Positions 1 to 5,382 of a stretch of 5,382 bases of DNA are shown piece by piece. The first letter of the stretch is position 1; the number at the start of each line of letters is the position of its first letter. The translations under genes were made by a program, and so were the position numbers. The notes beneath the pieces are model-generated. The model was not told the DNA's origin, made no database searches, and saw only the letters and a program-made list of their open reading frames with translations. Location: positions 1-5,382 of the IMG/VR virus record IMGVR_UViG_2648501730_000008; one strand, 5' to 3'. The DNA is from a virus. Taxonomy: Duplodnaviria; Heunggongvirae; Uroviricota; Caudoviricetes.

Positions 1-512
1 TGTGCAGAGGACAGGGGCACCCGGTAAAAGCCGGTGACCGCCATATTGTCCAGGTAAAGGTTCTGACCGTTGCGCCACCAGTCATCCTCACGCTCAAAAT
101 CCGGCATATCAATTCCCGCCAGATGGTATGCATCCCGGAACAGCGTGTAACAGTCCGTCACCCCGTGCTCAAAGCGCCGTCCTGTCAGATGTGGCACACA
201 GCGGAATTTATGAATGTCCCCCCGGCAGACCAGCCACCAGGACAGTGCACTTTTTATCTGCAGCCGCCGGTCGGCCTCGCTCAGCCAGGGCAGACCACCG
301 GGATGACTGTGGACCAGTGCCACAATCTCCCCCTGCATCTCTGCCCGCAGCCAGTCTTCCGGTGCAATACGAAAATACGCCTCCGGCTCTGCAGAAATAT
401 TCACACAAGGGATATACCACTCCCCCTCCGGCGTGCTTATCACGAAGCCGCACGACTCCGCAGGCGCACACCGCCGGGCATGCGCCAGAATCGCTGATTC
501 AGTCTGTGTCAT
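1..512 (-). CDS. K: Tail tip assembly protein K-like (N-terminal MPN/JAMM domain, start of NlpC/P60-like region); ATG at 512..510, 170 codons in window, 3' end truncated by window edge
   Basis: My own translation of the minus strand from ATG 512 gives MTQTESAILAHARRCAPAESCGFVISTPEGEWYIPCVNISAEPEAYFRIAPEDWLRAEMQGEIVALVHSHPGGLPWLSEADRR...GVTDCYTLFRDAYHLAGIDMPDFEREDDWWRNGQNLYLDNMAVTGFYRVPLSSA, open to position 1. It contains an exact JAMM motif H-x-H-x7-S-x2-D (HSHPGGLPWLSEAD) and closely resembles lambda gpK as I recall it. It sits immediately downstream of L, as in lambda. The ORF track missed it because it runs off the window; the 87-aa minus ORF at 208..471 is in a different frame. Confidence 0.9.
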   Translation of the reverse strand, partial: MTQTESAILAHARRCAPAESCGFVISTPEGEWYIPCVNISAEPEAYFRIAPEDWLRAEMQGEIVALVHSHPGGLPWLSEADRRLQIKSALSWWLVCRGDIHKFRCVPHLTGRRFEHGVTDCYTLFRDAYHLAGIDMPDFEREDDWWRNGQNLYLDNMAVTGFYRVPLSSA

Positions 513-522
513 AAACCGGGAT

Positions 523-1221
523 TTACTGCGAAAGTTTATTAATGGAAAGGAAACCGCCAAAATTAGCCACCATGCCGCGCATCTCACACCCGCGCATGCA
601 CTTGCTGCATCTGTCCTTACGGATATCCGTGGTGGGGTTGTCGAACTCATCCGCCACCGCAGGACCGTTATACCCGCATTCATCTCCCCGGTAATCCCAC
701 ATACAGGTGTTCGCCAGCATGATGCGACCGGGAAACAGCGCCCCGTCCGTCTCGGTCGGTGTAGCCAGCACAAACGAGGCCGTCATGGCCGTCAGCTCCG
801 ACATCTGCTCCACCACCCAGCGGTCACTCAGCTCCTGCTCCGGGTCCGCTTCCGGATTGCCCGCAACGAAATTCACCGCATCCAGAAAACGGGCATACAC
901 CCGGCGGCGGACCACCGTGGCCCCCACCAGACTCTGCAGGTCCTCCGCCATCCCGGTGACAAGACCAAACAGATTGGACACCGTCAGCGACGGGCGGGCA
1001 CTGCTGCCCTTCCCGTTCATCTCAAAGCCACTGCCGTCAATCGGGTATGCCTGATACTTACGCCCCTGCCAGGTCACCGGCTCCCCTTTTTCATTCAGCT
1101 CATTACAGAAAAAATACCGCTCACCACCCTGCACCGTCAGGTCAATTTCCCAGAGCACCACCCGCGGTGACTGCTCTGACTTAACCGACTCGTTCAGGCT
1201 TTCTTCGTGAATATCCTGCAT
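523..1221 (-). CDS. L: Minor tail protein L (tail tip complex; gpL family with C-terminal Cys cluster)
   Basis: 232-aa ORF, the same length as lambda gpL, with near-identical stretches as I recall lambda gpL (VVLWEIDLT, GGERYFFCNE.NEKGEPVTWQGR.YQ.YPI, FGGFLSINKLSQ). Its start ATG overlaps the M stop (TGATG). A GGTGGTG Shine-Dalgarno-like element lies about 5 nt upstream. Confidence 0.92.
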   Translation of the reverse strand: MQDIHEESLNESVKSEQSPRVVLWEIDLTVQGGERYFFCNELNEKGEPVTWQGRKYQAYPIDGSGFEMNGKGSSARPSLTVSNLFGLVTGMAEDLQSLVGATVVRRRVYARFLDAVNFVAGNPEADPEQELSDRWVVEQMSELTAMTASFVLATPTETDGALFPGRIMLANTCMWDYRGDECGYNGPAVADEFDNPTTDIRKDRCSKCMRGCEMRGMVANFGGFLSINKLSQ

Positions 1222-1562
1222 CAGTTCACCACCTGCTCAATCGTACAGCTGAAATCACTGTACCGGGCGTTATCCGTGACGCTCCACTCCCGGCACACCA
1301 CCCTCACCGTCCGGTTATGTTTCGGCGGTCGCCACAAAAAGGCACGGTAACCACCATGCCAGGATAAAAATTCATCCAGCCAGCGCCGGGTTGACTCATC
1401 CGTCACCCGGAACACCGCCTGAAACGTCTTCAGTTGAGGATTCAGCCCTGTGGGGCGGCGCTGTTCATAACCGTCACCAAACCGCACCCTCACCACCGAC
1501 GGCTTCTCACTCACCTGCATCCCTTCACGCGGGACCAGATGCAGCGTTTTTATCTCAGCCAC
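1221..1562 (-). CDS. M: Minor tail protein M
   Basis: 113-aa ORF with VRVRFGDGY and C-terminal EQVVN matching lambda gpM (109 aa) as I recall it. It begins at GTG (1562..1560), preceded by GGAGG at 1575..1571 with 8-nt spacing, and overlaps the tape measure stop codon. The position between H and L matches lambda gene order. Confidence 0.88.
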   Translation of the reverse strand: MAEIKTLHLVPREGMQVSEKPSVVRVRFGDGYEQRRPTGLNPQLKTFQAVFRVTDESTRRWLDEFLSWHGGYRAFLWRPPKHNRTVRVVCREWSVTDNARYSDFSCTIEQVVN

Positions 1563-4500
1563 TCAGCATTCCTCCGTCACGTCGCATGGACAGCATCACC
1601 GCCTGCACCCGCTGGTCAATCAGCTGCACAAGACTGCCTGCCGCCTCCGGCCCTATCTGGCCATTAGTCCCGTCATTCTGAATGGCGATATGGTAGACCG
1701 GGGAATACACCAGACCCGCACTGCCGTTCATACTGCCCACCGCGCGCACACCCAGCGAGCCATCCGCCGCCCGGGTCAGGGGCATAATGGCTTCAGGTCC
1801 GGCCTCCCCCATCAGTCCCGCCCCTTTTGCAAAGGCAAAGTACGTGGGCGTATCCACAATACTGTTGCTGTACGCACTCAGGTTTGCCGAGGTATACACG
1901 CCGCCTTTTGCATTGGCCACCGCACCGCCCAGCCAGTCACCAATGCTGCCGAGAAATCCTCCCGCACCGGACATACCGTTTGCCGCCGTCTTAATTCCGT
2001 TGACAATCGCGGCATTCATAAGAACTTTTGATATTTCCTGCAGCACTGATGAGGCCCAGCTGCGCCATTCCACTTTATTTCCGTTCAGCATCTCCGTGAT
2101 GTTATTCACCATCCCTGAGATACCCTCCGTCGCAAGCTGTGCTGCCTGTGAGGCGTAATCGGACGCATTATCCACCCAGTTACTGAATCCCTCCTGCAGC
2201 CCTTTCTGCCAGTCCGCACGCTGCACATCCGATTCGGCATAAAAAGCTTCCTGGTCTTTAAGGCGTTCACTCAGATACTGCGCGTTCTGTGCCAGAGCCT
2301 GTCTGTAAAAATCCTCACTGATATCCCCGGTCTGATACTGAGACTGAAGGTCCGCATCCTTCTGGCGGAAGCTGTCGCGGATCTGCTGCAACTCCCGCAT
2401 GCGTTCTCTGGCTCGCTCCCCCTGCCCGTACCCCAGCAGTTCAGCATCATTCGACGCACGCGCAGCCGCATTCTCATTCTTCAGTGTCTCTTCCCGGGAT
2501 CGCAACTGTTCCCGGATTTTTTGCTGGTCAATCAGGGCCGCATTACGCAGCAGTTCCTGCTTCTGCATCTCCGTCAGGGTTTTCAGTTCGCCCTGCGCAG
2601 TCTGGTATTTCAGCTTCGCCAGCTCTGTATTCTGCCCCACCAGTGCCAGTTGCTCTTTCTGCTGCTTCAGCAGCCGGGAAAAACTGTCTTCCGCTTTTTC
2701 CGTCTCTGATTTTCCACCCCGGGATTTGGGTTTATTCGCCTCGTTATTGCGCCAGGCTTCCAGGGCATTACTGATATAACGCTGTCTCGCCTCCTGATAC
2801 GGATCACCCACAAAACCGAGGTCATCCGCCGCATACCCCAGCCGGACACGCTCTTTTTCTTCCCCTTTCAGTCTGGACAGGGCCAGCTCACGCTCTGTTT
2901 TTGTCAGGGCACTCTGCTGTTTATCATCCAGGGTGGCCTGTGGCAGCCGTAACGGTACATTCACCAGTCCCTGACGCTGCTGAAGCAGTTCATTCCCCAG
3001 CCCCAGCAGACGGTTGAATTCCGTATGCTGACCGTTCATAACCAGCATGGACTGGTACACCTTATTCTGCTCTGCCGCCTGCTGACGAATTAACGCCACA
3101 CGACGGTCTTCCAGCCCGGCAAGCACATCCTGAATGGACTGCGCTTTTTCCTGCATCTGTGCCAGACGGGACTGCTCAACGGCAAGCTGCTCTGTTGCCT
3201 GAGCAAGCCCTTCCGTTACGGTCTTCACCGAGGTCAGATGGTTTATCATGAATCCGTCACCGGTCGTCCAGCCCGGGTTCGCCAGAACATACTGATATCC
3301 TGCGATTTTTTCCTGCAGGGATTTCACCCGACTGGCCTGTTCATCAATCAGCCGGTTCTGCTCTGTCAGCGCCGCCCGTGTTCGTCCTTCATTATCTGAG
3401 GCTTCAGGCAAAGACATTGACGGCGTTTTATGCGCGATTTCATCTATCGTCAGTGCATACTGGCGCGCAGACTCCCTGGCCTGCTCCTGATTCTGGTACA
3501 GCGTATACCATGCTGCAGCCCCCAGCATCACCAGTCCGGGTACGCCACCAACCAGCCCCAACGCACCACTCATCAGACGTGAGCCCACCGCCGTTGTACT
3601 GTTCAGCGCATTCTGGGCGGCGCTTCTGGCAGCAATATTTCTGTTCAGGCGTTCCTGTGTGGCCGCCAGACGGGCCTCTGCAGCAATCTGCATCTCCGTC
3701 CCGCGGGCTGCCGCCACGGCCTGCTGAGCACGGTACACGGCTGCCCTTGCCCGCGCCGTGGCAATCTGCGTTCCCCTGAACTGTGCTTCCGCCAGTGCAA
3801 CTTCATTACGTGCAGCCGTCACAAGTCCTGCCGTGGCAGACATCGCTCCGGAGGCCATATTGCCAAAGTACCGGGCAACCCCGACGGCAACCAGCGCACC
3901 CACAGCTGTTGCCACATTATCAATCTGTCCGGCAACACCGTTCAGCACGCCGGAGAGCGTTTTTGTCACCCCGCTGGCCTCATTCGCACCGCCCACCCAG
4001 GCCATAAAGGCGTTTTCCACCTTCGTGATACCACCAGAAACCGTTTCCGGCATGGCGGCATATTCATCACGCAATACCCCCAGCTGGCTGATTAACGCAG
4101 GAACGACTTTATCCGCCGTCAGTTGACCATCGTCCGCCATCGCCTTCAGATCTTTACGGGCCACGCCCATGCCTGCAGCCAGTGCACGAATGATCCGGTC
4201 ACCACTTTCATTGACCGAATTAAATTCCTCACCGCGCAACACACCCTGTGCCAGCGCCTGGCTGAACTGGGTGATCACCGAACCCGCCTCAGCCGTACTG
4301 GCACCGGAGATTTTCAGCCCCGTGGAAATGGCCTCCGTCACCTTCAGCACATCATCAGCACTGTAACCATATTCACGCATCGAGGCAGCCGAACGGGCAA
4401 ACAGGGCCGCATTATCCGAAAAAGCGGTACCTGTCCGCTGGCTGATATCCATCAGCACTTTCTGTGATGACGAAAATTCATCAGATGACTGCGACGCCTG

Positions 4501-4797
4501 TTTCAGACGGGCATTCACGGAACTCCACTCATCAGCCAGTGAAATCAGGTGTCCGGTGGCAAAGGCACCGGCAAATGCGCCAGCCATTCCGACAGCCGAA
4601 GCGCGGATTTCCGTCAACTGGCTGTTCAGTTCTGCCAGGGCACGTCGCTGCTCCCGGGCTGCCGCAGCGGCCTGACGCCCGCCATTCTGCAGGGTCCGGT
4701 AATATTCACTGCCCATACGGGAAGCACGCTGGAGCTCCGACTGGAATGACTGTGAATTTGCCGAAATTTTGATAATCAGTTCACGTAACGTCGCCAT
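1555..4797 (-). CDS. H: Tail tape measure protein (lambda gpH-like C-terminal region; Gly/Ala-rich hydrophobic segments and long coiled-coil-like middle)
   Basis: 1080-aa ORF, the longest in the window, located between the G-T chaperone pair and M. The C-terminal ~215 aa (NWVDNASDYASQ...NDGTNGQIGP...RRDGGMLSG) resembles the lambda gpH C-terminus as I recall it. The sequence is Ala/Gln/Glu/Arg-rich, typical of tape measure proteins. ATG at 4797..4795 is preceded by a GGAGAAAGG ribosome binding site. Confidence 0.95.
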   Translation of the reverse strand: MATLRELIIKISANSQSFQSELQRASRMGSEYYRTLQNGGRQAAAAAREQRRALAELNSQLTEIRASAVGMAGAFAGAFATGHLISLADEWSSVNARLKQASQSSDEFSSSQKVLMDISQRTGTAFSDNAALFARSAASMREYGYSADDVLKVTEAISTGLKISGASTAEAGSVITQFSQALAQGVLRGEEFNSVNESGDRIIRALAAGMGVARKDLKAMADDGQLTADKVVPALISQLGVLRDEYAAMPETVSGGITKVENAFMAWVGGANEASGVTKTLSGVLNGVAGQIDNVATAVGALVAVGVARYFGNMASGAMSATAGLVTAARNEVALAEAQFRGTQIATARARAAVYRAQQAVAAARGTEMQIAAEARLAATQERLNRNIAARSAAQNALNSTTAVGSRLMSGALGLVGGVPGLVMLGAAAWYTLYQNQEQARESARQYALTIDEIAHKTPSMSLPEASDNEGRTRAALTEQNRLIDEQASRVKSLQEKIAGYQYVLANPGWTTGDGFMINHLTSVKTVTEGLAQATEQLAVEQSRLAQMQEKAQSIQDVLAGLEDRRVALIRQQAAEQNKVYQSMLVMNGQHTEFNRLLGLGNELLQQRQGLVNVPLRLPQATLDDKQQSALTKTERELALSRLKGEEKERVRLGYAADDLGFVGDPYQEARQRYISNALEAWRNNEANKPKSRGGKSETEKAEDSFSRLLKQQKEQLALVGQNTELAKLKYQTAQGELKTLTEMQKQELLRNAALIDQQKIREQLRSREETLKNENAAARASNDAELLGYGQGERARERMRELQQIRDSFRQKDADLQSQYQTGDISEDFYRQALAQNAQYLSERLKDQEAFYAESDVQRADWQKGLQEGFSNWVDNASDYASQAAQLATEGISGMVNNITEMLNGNKVEWRSWASSVLQEISKVLMNAAIVNGIKTAANGMSGAGGFLGSIGDWLGGAVANAKGGVYTSANLSAYSNSIVDTPTYFAFAKGAGLMGEAGPEAIMPLTRAADGSLGVRAVGSMNGSAGLVYSPVYHIAIQNDGTNGQIGPEAAGSLVQLIDQRVQAVMLSMRRDGGMLSG
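1571..1575 (-). promoter_or_regulatory. Shine-Dalgarno element (GGAGG) for M, embedded in the 3' end of the tape measure gene
   Basis: The minus strand reads GACGGAGGAATGCTGAGTGGCTGAG: GGAGG, then 8 nt, then the GTG start of M. The H stop TGA (1557..1555) lies inside the second and third codons of M. Confidence 0.5.
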
Positions 4798-4800
4798 TCA

Positions 4801-4809
4801 CCTTTCTCC
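4801..4809 (-). promoter_or_regulatory. Shine-Dalgarno / ribosome binding site for the tape measure gene (GGAGAAAGG, 3 nt before the ATG)
   Basis: The minus strand reads CCCGGAGAAAGGTGAATGGCG, with ATG at 4797..4795. Confidence 0.55.
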
Positions 4810-4815
4810 GGGCGT

Positions 4816-4836
4816 AAAAAAACCGCCTCAGCGGTT
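4816..4836 (-). terminator. Short hairpin (6-bp stem AACCGC/GCGGTT, 4-nt loop) followed by a 7-U tract, oriented with the operon; candidate weak intrinsic terminator or attenuator between T and H
   Basis: The minus strand reads GAACCGCTGAGGCGGTTTTTTTACGCC, directly after the T stop (TGA 4847..4845) and before the H ribosome binding site. The stem is short, so any termination is probably partial. Confidence 0.3.
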
Positions 4837-4844
4837 CTCATCAT

Positions 4845-5153
4845 TCATGACTGTGCTGCAAGGCTCAGCGCGTCTTCCAGCGCCGCAAACGGATCCACCT
4901 CCGGCTTATCCTCATCCTCGCCCCAGCAGAGCATGGCGTCCTCCAGTGAAACATTCATCCCCTGCGCCCCGAAAACCGCTTTCACGATCTGCGCATTACG
5001 GATATCCCCGCGCTCATCACCCAGCGGGGACACCCTGTCAAACTCCATCCACATCATCGCCTCGCTCGCACTCAGACTGTGCCCCAGTTCGGATAAGGTG
5101 CGCCCCAGACGGAGCGCAAGTCGCATCAGAAAGAGAATTTCCGGGCGGGCTAC
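4845..5153 (-). CDS. T: T-like -1 frame extension of the tail assembly chaperone (C-terminal part of the G-T fusion); not an independent gene
   Basis: The frame is open from the slippery site (first post-shift codon GTA at 5153..5151) to TGA at 4847..4845. It is -1 relative to the G-like ORF. There is no Shine-Dalgarno element ahead of the internal ATG at 5126. It sits immediately upstream of the tape measure gene, as lambda T does. Confidence 0.8.
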   Translation of the reverse strand, partial: VARPEILFLMRLALRLGRTLSELGHSLSASEAMMWMEFDRVSPLGDERGDIRNAQIVKAVFGAQGMNVSLEDAMLCWGEDEDKPEVDPFAALEDALSLAAQS

Positions 5154-5382
5154 TTTTTTCTGGCCGACTCTGCATCAGCGATCAGTTCCAGTGCCTGACG
5201 CAGCAACCGGGCATGTACCGGACCATAGACGGCCAGCACCTGCTCACGGTCGTCCGGAGTGAACACCCGCTGCAGATCAGTATCAAACAGGACATCGCAG
5301 AACAGCGTCACATCCGCTTCCAGGTTACGGCGGGTTTTCGCCACCACCGACAGGGTATCGTCATCCTCTCCATCACCATTGA
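5150..5382 (-). CDS. G: G-like tail assembly chaperone, 5' partial (start lies beyond the window end)
   Basis: The frame is open from the window edge (...NGDGEDDDTLSVVAKTRRNLEADVTLFCDVLFDTDLQRVFTPDDREQVLAVYGPVHARLLRQALELIADAESARKK*). The GTG at 5347 used by the ORF track is internal. The ORF ends in the slippery heptamer plus TAG and lies directly upstream of the T-like ORF and H, the canonical G / G-T / tape measure arrangement. Its sequence does not obviously match lambda gpG from memory, so the call rests on synteny and the recoding signal. Confidence 0.75.
   Translation of the reverse strand, partial: NGDGEDDDTLSVVAKTRRNLEADVTLFCDVLFDTDLQRVFTPDDREQVLAVYGPVHARLLRQALELIADAESARKK
5153..5159 (-). 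other. Programmed -1 ribosomal frameshift slippery heptamer A_AAA_AAG, immediately followed by the G-frame stop TAG
   Basis: The minus strand reads TCG GCC AGA AAA AAG TAG in the G frame. After a -1 slip the reading continues AAA AAA GTA GCC CGC CCG GAA ATT CTC TTT CTG ATG CGA..., which is the 93-aa ORF frame. Confidence 0.75.

Follow-up and report, generated by a model that had tools for sequence, protein, structure and literature searches.

How are two tail assembly chaperones obtained from reading frames that overlap by only a few bases, lie one base out of register with each other, and of which the second lacks a ribosome-binding site of its own? The question is raised by a stretch of 5,382 nucleotides (nt) from a tailed phage (Caudoviricetes; IMG/VR record IMGVR_UViG_2648501730_000008, positions 1 to 5,382), hereafter the window, whose genes all lie on the minus strand. 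At its upper end, the last codons of a G-type tail assembly chaperone gene run into a T-type frame placed at −1. We are highly confident that this site is a programmed −1 ribosomal frameshift that produces a G / G-T pair in a lambdoid Escherichia coli prophage with an HK97-type tail. The site is already known, as it was published and tested in the laboratory in 2013; an earlier note, made on the letters of this DNA, was correct in pointing it out, and the observation is an ordinary one. The G:G-T ratio obtained through ribosomal slippage is needed for long phage tails of correct length and is textbook biology.

The end of the G frame was examined first at the level of individual codons. It reads ...A-E-S-A-R-K-K-stop, with codons GCC AGA AAA AAG TAG, just as described in the earlier note. 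The last two sense codons and the base before them form the heptamer A_AAA_AAG in the X_XXY_YYZ register of the G frame, and the TAG that closes the frame follows directly, a context known as a ‘shifty stop’ (coordinates of all features are given in Table 1). The −1 frame, entered at GTA (5153..5151), reads VARPEILFLMRLALRLGRT... and continues to a TGA at 4847..4845. This is the endpoint that had been proposed; the length of 103 codons that accompanied the proposal includes the stop, and the sense codons number 102. On its upstream side the −1 frame is open only from 5174, after a TGA at 5177..5175, that is, 25 nt ahead of the G end, and therefore the slip must occur within a few codons of the heptamer. 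The slippery sequence lies in the correct register inside this overlap. The junction predicted from simultaneous −1 slippage is ...SARKK-VARPEILF.... The interval singled out in the earlier note, 5124..5162, takes in the heptamer, the stop and also the ATG (5126..5124) that is annotated as the start of T.

The rarity of the heptamer was considered as a possible line of evidence and rejected. One copy is present in the window, against 0.42 expected on both strands, and at least one copy was found in 70 of 200 shuffled sequences. The features that depart from chance are the register of the heptamer, its position and its conservation, not its bare presence. By a rough estimate, the chance of finding an efficient heptamer in phase, within a 25-nt overlap and at the junction of two Pfam domains, would be below 1%.

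The assignment of the two frames to G-like and T-like chaperones was borne out by profile searches. Because the G gene starts beyond position 5382, the complete protein of 124 amino acids (aa) was inspected in a homologous locus that is 98.7% identical (L001:2859-3233), where it matches PF06222 (Phage_TAC_1) from its first to its last residue (1-124/124, E 3.1e-61). The −1 frame matches PF06223 (Phage_tail_T, E 3.7e-19). A single PHROG profile of 224 positions, phrog_14766, spans G and T as one protein, and matches to phrog_344 and phrog_337 were also obtained. Both parts are thus homologous to known G and T proteins, and their identity to the counterparts of the HK97-like phages HK446 and mEpX1 is about 57-59%. 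Gene order agrees with the assignment: the tape measure gene follows directly on the end of G and T, and in L001 G comes immediately after the gene for the major tail subunit, so that the pair stands between the major tail protein and tape measure genes.

A broader view was provided by comparison with relatives. A tblastn search with the fused protein matched 236 phage records, and a comparison set of 149 loci was fetched by T-domain alignment, of which 69 come from bacterial genomes that represent their species and 80 from IMG/VR contigs. T lies at −1 relative to G in 146 of the 149 homologous loci, which belong to many genera. One locus (L077) has no detectable G. Anomalies of frame were found in two others. 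In L013, G carries an internal indel and the −1 junction is kept. In L022, from Candidatus Symbiopectobacterium endolongispinus (1150..1260), a run of nine A replaces the eight of its relatives, and the resulting in-frame product, ...AKKKVTQPGMQFLM..., contains exactly the junction that slippage should give. G is also out of frame over its N-terminal part in L022, which is probably a decaying prophage or the result of a homopolymer assembly error.

Anomalies of this kind (2/149 loci), together with the proneness of homopolymer runs to indel errors, bring up the idea that the frame break in the window might itself be a sequencing or assembly indel or the mark of a pseudogene, G and T being in truth one in-frame gene or a dead one. 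We give this explanation a negligible probability. The AGA AAA AAG TAG junction recurs in 92 phage records and among the complete E. coli genomes, of which 1246 out of 5426 have a match with 90-99% identity, as well as in about 60 independent IMG/VR contigs; besides, the −1 relation extends over many genera, and both Pfam domains are intact. Sequencing error is excluded because hundreds of independent assemblies share the junction.

When the slip site was compared among the 69 genome loci, every overlap was found to contain A_AAG or A_AAC in frame. The heptamer of the window, A_AAA_AAG, is present in 36 loci, the HK97 type G_GAA_AAG in nine, A_AAA_AAC in five, G_GGA_AAG in a further five; the other 14 have the tetramer only (GCA_AAG, GAA_AAG, GTA_AAG, TTA_AAG). 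Slip codon and stop adjoin each other in 42 of these loci, even though there is variation in the codon of the P site (AAA, GAA, GCA, GTA) and in the stop itself (TAG, TAA, TGA). In the E. coli-type loci (L078-L138), AGA AAA AAG TAG is invariant and the neighbouring codons are variable. Since relatives exist that have only A_AAG preceded by a non-slippery P-site codon, the slip of the A-site Lys codon is the conserved core, and the minimal signal conserved in the family seems, on these alignments, to be A_AAG with an adjacent stop.

Two side observations concern the variants of the site. Tetramer-only A_AAG with a non-slippery P-site codon right before the stop (GCA_AAG_TAA, GTA_AAG_TAA) was found in L006, L029, L032, L034-L037, L039-L041, L054 and L064; these loci belong to Klebsiella, Raoultella, Pantoea, Erwinia and Kalamiella, and some of them have a −1 frame with an open stretch of no more than 10 nt. 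In halophile relatives (L063, L066 and L068, from Salinicola and a related gammaproteobacterium), A_AAA_AAC is followed directly by TGA, where others have A_AAA_AAG with TAG or TAA, a combination for which a different repertoire of host tRNA-Lys may be responsible.

The presence of an A run admits another explanation, in which RNA polymerase adds one A to the A6 run and brings G and T into frame, with an identical protein as the outcome. An added A does give the same junction (RKK-VAR), as seen in L022 with its extra genomic A. Programmed transcriptional realignment is known to take place on homopolymeric A runs (PMC3711429), and polymerase slippage is more plausible in those relatives that have longer A8 runs (phage Evi, Symbiopectobacterium). 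The run found here has only six A, however, whereas more than seven are present in those cited as sites of transcriptional realignment (PMC3711429). Many relatives keep the −1 arrangement without any homopolymer (GCA_AAG_TAA, GTA_AAG_TAA, G_GGA_AAG), and therefore the mechanism common to the family must be ribosomal. What is conserved, a Lys codon AAG in the A site plus an adjacent stop, fits slippage of the ribosome and not of the polymerase. Transcriptional slippage is, in our judgement, extremely unlikely to account for the G-T protein.

Ribosomal frameshifting in this family has a published record. Antonov et al. 2013 predicted a ‘Phage_TAC’ frameshift cluster made of 41 genes resembling an HK97 protein, and tested two of its members in E. 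coli with a GST-MBP reporter (PMC3711429). A cassette that is identical to the window except for one base showed 7 ± 0.79 % −1 frameshifting (PMC3711429, Table S2), and the second construct, a G_GGA_AAG_CCG_TAA relative of the mEp390 type, showed 6% (PMC3711429). In the work of Sharma et al. 2014, cluster A_AAA_AAG_25 comprises 53 genes and is listed with ECs1801 and the description ‘tail assembly chaperone; [true]’; the motif is placed at codon 124 and the frameshift product has 226 aa (PMC4066793). ECs1801, from E. coli O157:H7 Sakai (GeneTack ‘Phage_TAC’ cluster 862991913), is essentially the same locus, with the same heptamer and TAG. Among the 236 phage records matched by tblastn, those of HK97, HK446 and Bcep176 annotate the fusion as a two-piece, joined coding sequence, and Bcep176 gp69/69' also uses A_AAA_AAG. 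The view that a G / G-T frameshift is a conserved feature, advanced in the earlier note, agrees with the annotated homologues of HK97 and HK446 and with the activity of the cassette.

The single base that distinguishes the window from the ECs1801-type cassette lies at 5134, where the window has T and both the published cassette and the other E. coli-type sequences compared have G. The minus-strand codon (5135..5133) changes from CGC to CTC, and residue 7 of the T part changes from Arg to Leu; the position falls in the loop of the first hairpin predicted downstream of the heptamer.

A further alternative is that T is an independent gene, started or restarted at ATG 5126..5124 to yield a free T of 93 aa, and that the heptamer is incidental. 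A separate ‘phage tail assembly protein T’ is annotated from this codon in RefSeq and GenBank, all 58 relatives compared have the Met codon, and some reinitiation is conceivable at a distance of only 24 nt past the G stop. The surroundings of the ATG tell otherwise. No Shine-Dalgarno (SD)-like sequence is found 5-10 nt before it in the window, and none is conserved in relatives. No locus has a stop in the T frame between slip site and ATG, and the codons of this interval bear a coding signature in the T frame: they include a conserved Phe-Leu and an invariant Pro, whose CCN codon is fixed in its first two positions and free in the third. A stable hairpin begins 5 nt after the ATG, within the initiation footprint, and should disfavour initiation. 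To this are added the conservation of slip motif and −1 relation across genera and the 7% frameshifting of a near-identical cassette (PMC3711429). Production of T as an independent protein thus appears very unlikely to be the explanation of the locus. In lambda, T is reportedly made only as G-T, as the 1993 work of Levin et al. is said to have established.

Several points weigh against programmed −1 frameshifting in the window. One is that public annotation, by PGAP and in most phage records, gives T as an independent gene. A second is that the cassette tested in the literature differs from the window by one base, with an Arg to Leu change in the T part, and that its 7% comes from a plasmid-borne reporter and not from phage-infected cells. 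Third, a literature search aimed at ECs1801 found no paper, and no junction-peptide, proteomic or ribosome-profiling evidence was found for the fusion in this prophage type or in O157 strains. The others have to do with stimulation of the slip. A gap of about 20-fold over the bare heptamer implies a stimulator, and none was identified: the upstream sequence, GCAGAGUCGGCC, contains no SD-like element of the dnaX type, expected 6-17 nt before the heptamer; the hairpin closest to the site, hairpin 1, is weak and lineage-specific, with 59.6% of cells paired across 36 relatives; and RNAalifold detected no consensus structure in 36 diverse relatives.

Candidates for the cause of this rise are the adjacent stop and a conserved distal hairpin. 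The bare heptamer yields 0.29% frameshifting in the E. coli reporter of Sharma et al. 2014, and 4.3% when combined with the IS911 stimulator (PMC4066793, Table S3). The assays differ, yet the contrast between 0.29% and the 7% of the native cassette implies some effect of context. On the upstream side, SD is scored as N for cluster A_AAA_AAG_25 (PMC4066793), and in the relatives that possess GAGG-like strings, located in acidic codons, no consistent SD-like element is formed.

Downstream of the heptamer, the earlier note had seen no convincing stem-loop by eye and had suggested folding the next 60 nt. The fold contains two predicted hairpins, with −21.6 kcal/mol and a z score of −2.72. The visual impression was therefore right as regards hairpin 1, which is the properly spaced one, and missed a second, conserved hairpin that lies further away. 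Hairpin 1 starts 5 nt after the heptamer, and a stable, conserved hairpin at 5-8 nt, as found in dnaX, is absent from the site. Relatives from Proteus and Morganella have no structure at its place, nor is there any general structure in the 34 nt after the site across 36 relatives (mean z +0.30). Sharma et al. 2014 likewise predicted a 130-nt structure with a spacer of 5 nt and a ddG/nt of 0.020 kcal/mol/nt, which is below their cut-off of 0.09 (PMC4066793, Table S8). Folds of 87, 91 and 100 nt are no more stable than shuffled sequences (z −1.08, −0.24 and −0.67, respectively), although folds of this kind are blind to pseudoknots. Our best guess is that the element that raises the rate would be the adjacent stop, possibly together with downstream RNA structure. 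The adjacency of slip codon and stop in 42 of the 69 genome loci supports a contribution of the stop to slippage, as the earlier note had suggested, without being a proof of it.

The second hairpin, hairpin 2, is GC-rich and lies inside the T coding region, where it starts 34 nt past the heptamer and 5 nt past the invariant AUG. This hairpin is conserved: in 25 of 36 relatives it has a stability of −8 kcal/mol or better. Pair counts in these 36 relatives do not show covariation, because variable third-codon positions pair with first-codon positions that are fixed by the protein. Codon-entropy and recoding tests were performed with 58 T genes below 95% identity, a sample in which kinship of the sequences inflates the counts. 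Stem codons are strikingly uniform: Ala13 is GCG in 51 of 58 (0.53 bits), Gly17 is GGG in 48 (0.83 bits), Leu14 is CTC in 43 (1.25 bits) and Arg18 is CGC in 44 (1.28 bits). In comparison, Arg15, in the loop, has mixed codons (2.04 bits), and so have other well-conserved Ala, Gly, Leu and Arg columns outside the hairpin (1.5-2.3 bits). The four stem codons have the lowest synonymous entropy in the T gene, save for codon 1 (GTA), which overlaps the G stop.

Synonymous recoding gave a concordant result. The native segment has a mean of −10.7 kcal/mol, against −5.7 kcal/mol for its recodings; the median z is −2.76, and in 34 of 58 sequences the native segment ranks within the best 5%. All other 8-codon windows of T have a mean z between −0.6 and +0.3, and only hairpin 2 exceeds its recodings. 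We regard hairpin 2 as a real constraint at the RNA level. It has been lost in some lineages, Yersinia among them, and therefore it is not indispensable.

The role of hairpin 2 admits more than one explanation. A classical stimulator would lie closer to the slip site than 34 nt. One possibility is that it prevents ribosomes from initiating internally, or reinitiating, at the AUG, which would restrict T to the G-T form. It might also be a distal modulator of slippage and help to explain the difference between 7% for the native cassette and 0.3% for the bare heptamer. A third possibility is that it causes a pause that queues the following ribosome onto the slip site, given an A-site to A-site distance of 29 nt. 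We found no earlier description of hairpin 2 as a functional RNA element of G-T expression, and we propose such a function only tentatively, considering it rather doubtful.

Expression of the pair by programmed −1 frameshifting would proceed as follows. Most ribosomes translating G would read AGA AAA AAG and terminate at the adjacent TAG, releasing the 124-aa G protein. A few per cent would slip back by one base, as the tRNA-Lys molecules on AAA (P site) and AAG (A site) re-pair on AAA AAA; these ribosomes would go on to read GTA GCC CGC... and add the 102-aa T domain, yielding a 226-aa G-T protein with the junction given above. Such a slip would be favoured by the single tRNA-Lys of E. coli, which makes A_AAG and A_AAA_AAG especially shift-prone (PMC5009743). 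If lambda is a guide, the tape measure protein would be coated by G and by the G part of G-T, the T part would recruit the major tail subunit, and a low, fixed G-T:G ratio, set by the frequency of slippage, would be needed for correct tail assembly. For the chaperones of the window we infer this mechanism from lambda, from homology and from gene order.

Table 1. Features of the window, in its own coordinates, with the evidence for each
Feature	Position	Strand	Evidence
G-type tail assembly chaperone, C-terminal 77 codons + stop (0 frame)	5150..5382	-	translation; gene start beyond 5382
Slippery heptamer A_AAA_AAG, X_XXY_YYZ register of the G frame (codons AGA AAA AAG)	5153..5159	-	sequence reading and translation
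0-frame stop TAG directly 3' of the heptamer	5150..5152	-	sequence reading and translation
−1 frame, T part of G-T, 102 codons + TGA	4845..5153	-	translation; PF06223; phrog_14766 positions 125-224
Hairpin 1 (CGC.CGGAAA / UUUCUG..GCG)	5122..5147	-	fold −7.3 kcal/mol; 5-nt spacer to the heptamer
Invariant ATG (Met10 of the T part), annotated start of 93-aa ‘tail assembly protein T’	5124..5126	-	PGAP annotation of homologue; open reading frame list
Hairpin 2 (UGCGCUCC-GUCU-GGGGCGCA), inside the T coding region	5099..5118	-	fold −13.6 kcal/mol, z −4.58
Terminator-like hairpin (AACCGC-TGAG-GCGGTT, then T run), between T stop and tape measure start	4816..4836	-	fold −10.8 kcal/mol, z −2.77
Gene for the 1080-aa tape measure protein, the tail assembly partner of G/G-T	1555..4797	-	open reading frame list and Pfam
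Minor tail protein M homologue	1221..1562	-	PF05939
Minor tail protein L homologue	523..1221	-	PF05100

In the direction of transcription, the window contains the end of G, the −1 frame of T, and the genes for tape measure protein, M and L. The tape measure protein matches PF06120 (HK97 tape measure, E 1.3e-90) and also PF20155 and PF09718. The tape measure and M genes overlap by 8 nt (1555..1562), and M and L by 1 nt (1221), a tight packing that is typical of translationally coupled tail genes. The terminator-like hairpin (4836..4816) and its T run were recognised only by direct folding, as a consensus terminator and promoter scan of 4600..5382 listed nothing; in the HK97 and HK446 records, a terminator is annotated at the equivalent place.

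The 683 bases around the site matched 92 phage records at 95-99% identity, which are those of Stx1a-, Stx2c- and Stx2a-converting phages, BP-4795, 2851 and YYZ-2008. The same region was matched in about a quarter of complete E. coli genomes (1246/5426), and the whole window has 98.2% identity with the best of them. These matches identify the window as a tail module, with a tail of the HK97 type, from a lambdoid prophage that is common in E. coli (Stx1/Stx2c-phage, BP-4795 type). PGAP and most depositors present G as one gene and T as another, the latter truncated to 93 aa by a start at the internal ATG, or to even less, as in homologues L001, L002, L003, L006 and L007. In spite of the published test of the site, the 226-aa product is thus missing from protein databases for a prophage family of this abundance, Stx-converting phages included.

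HK97 is one of the related systems described elsewhere. Its gp13 is the nearest documented homologue in the G family PF06222, and gp13/gp14 belong to homologous protein families and show the same gene order and −1 relation as the window. The fusion is described in the HK97 record as ‘translated due to a -1 frameshift’, and HK446 is annotated likewise; the G/G-T analogues of HK97 are credited to Xu, Hendrix & Duda 2004, as relayed by PMC3711429 and by the HK97 GenBank record. The conserved distal hairpin lies at the same distance in HK97 and in the window. Differences also exist: the HK97 slip site, CGG_GAA_AAG (G_GAA_AAG), is located five codons before the stop, whereas A_AAA_AAG adjoins it in the window, and the window lacks the moron, gp15, that separates T from the tape measure gene in HK97. 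In HK97-type loci (L159, HK97, 1230..1260; L005, HK446; L010, L012-L016 and L021), the codons are CGG GAA AAG, a register that is not the lambda-type G_GGA_AAG, and the stop comes five codons further on. On G_GAA_AAG, re-pairing of the P-site tRNA-Glu on GGA would involve a G:U in the middle of the codon.

The logic of lambda gpG/gpGT would be shared by the window: a −1 slip near the end of G and a low, fixed ratio. In lambda the ratio is about 30:1, the tape measure protein is bound by G and the major tail protein by T, and both G and G-T are needed to assemble the tail yet do not occur in virions (PMC5009743). The lambda heptamer is G_GGA_AAG, as the earlier note had stated and as the codons GCG GGA AAG of the lambda G frame show, and its stop comes five codons later. 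The T part of lambda belongs to PF06223, as does that of the window; BLASTP of the window T part against lambda T gave no alignment, so that the relation rests on Pfam family and motif. A stable hairpin also follows the lambda heptamer by about 34 nt, starting from the homologous codon, but it is a different one.

The comparison with dnaX drawn in the earlier note is accurate as far as the heptamer is concerned: E. coli dnaX uses AAAAAAG (PMC4344849), and the same single tRNA-Lys decodes both sites. In dnaX, a strong upstream SD-like stimulator and a downstream hairpin bring shifting to about 50% (PMC3711429), and the frameshift product is the shorter protein. In the window the product is the longer one, and about 7% shifting would be reached with neither an SD nor a strong proximal hairpin. 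Finally, IS1222 (G_CGA_AAG) and Bacillus subtilis cdd (A_CGA_AAG) have tetranucleotide A_AAG sites comparable to those of several relatives, from which the window differs in having a full heptamer for tandem slippage.

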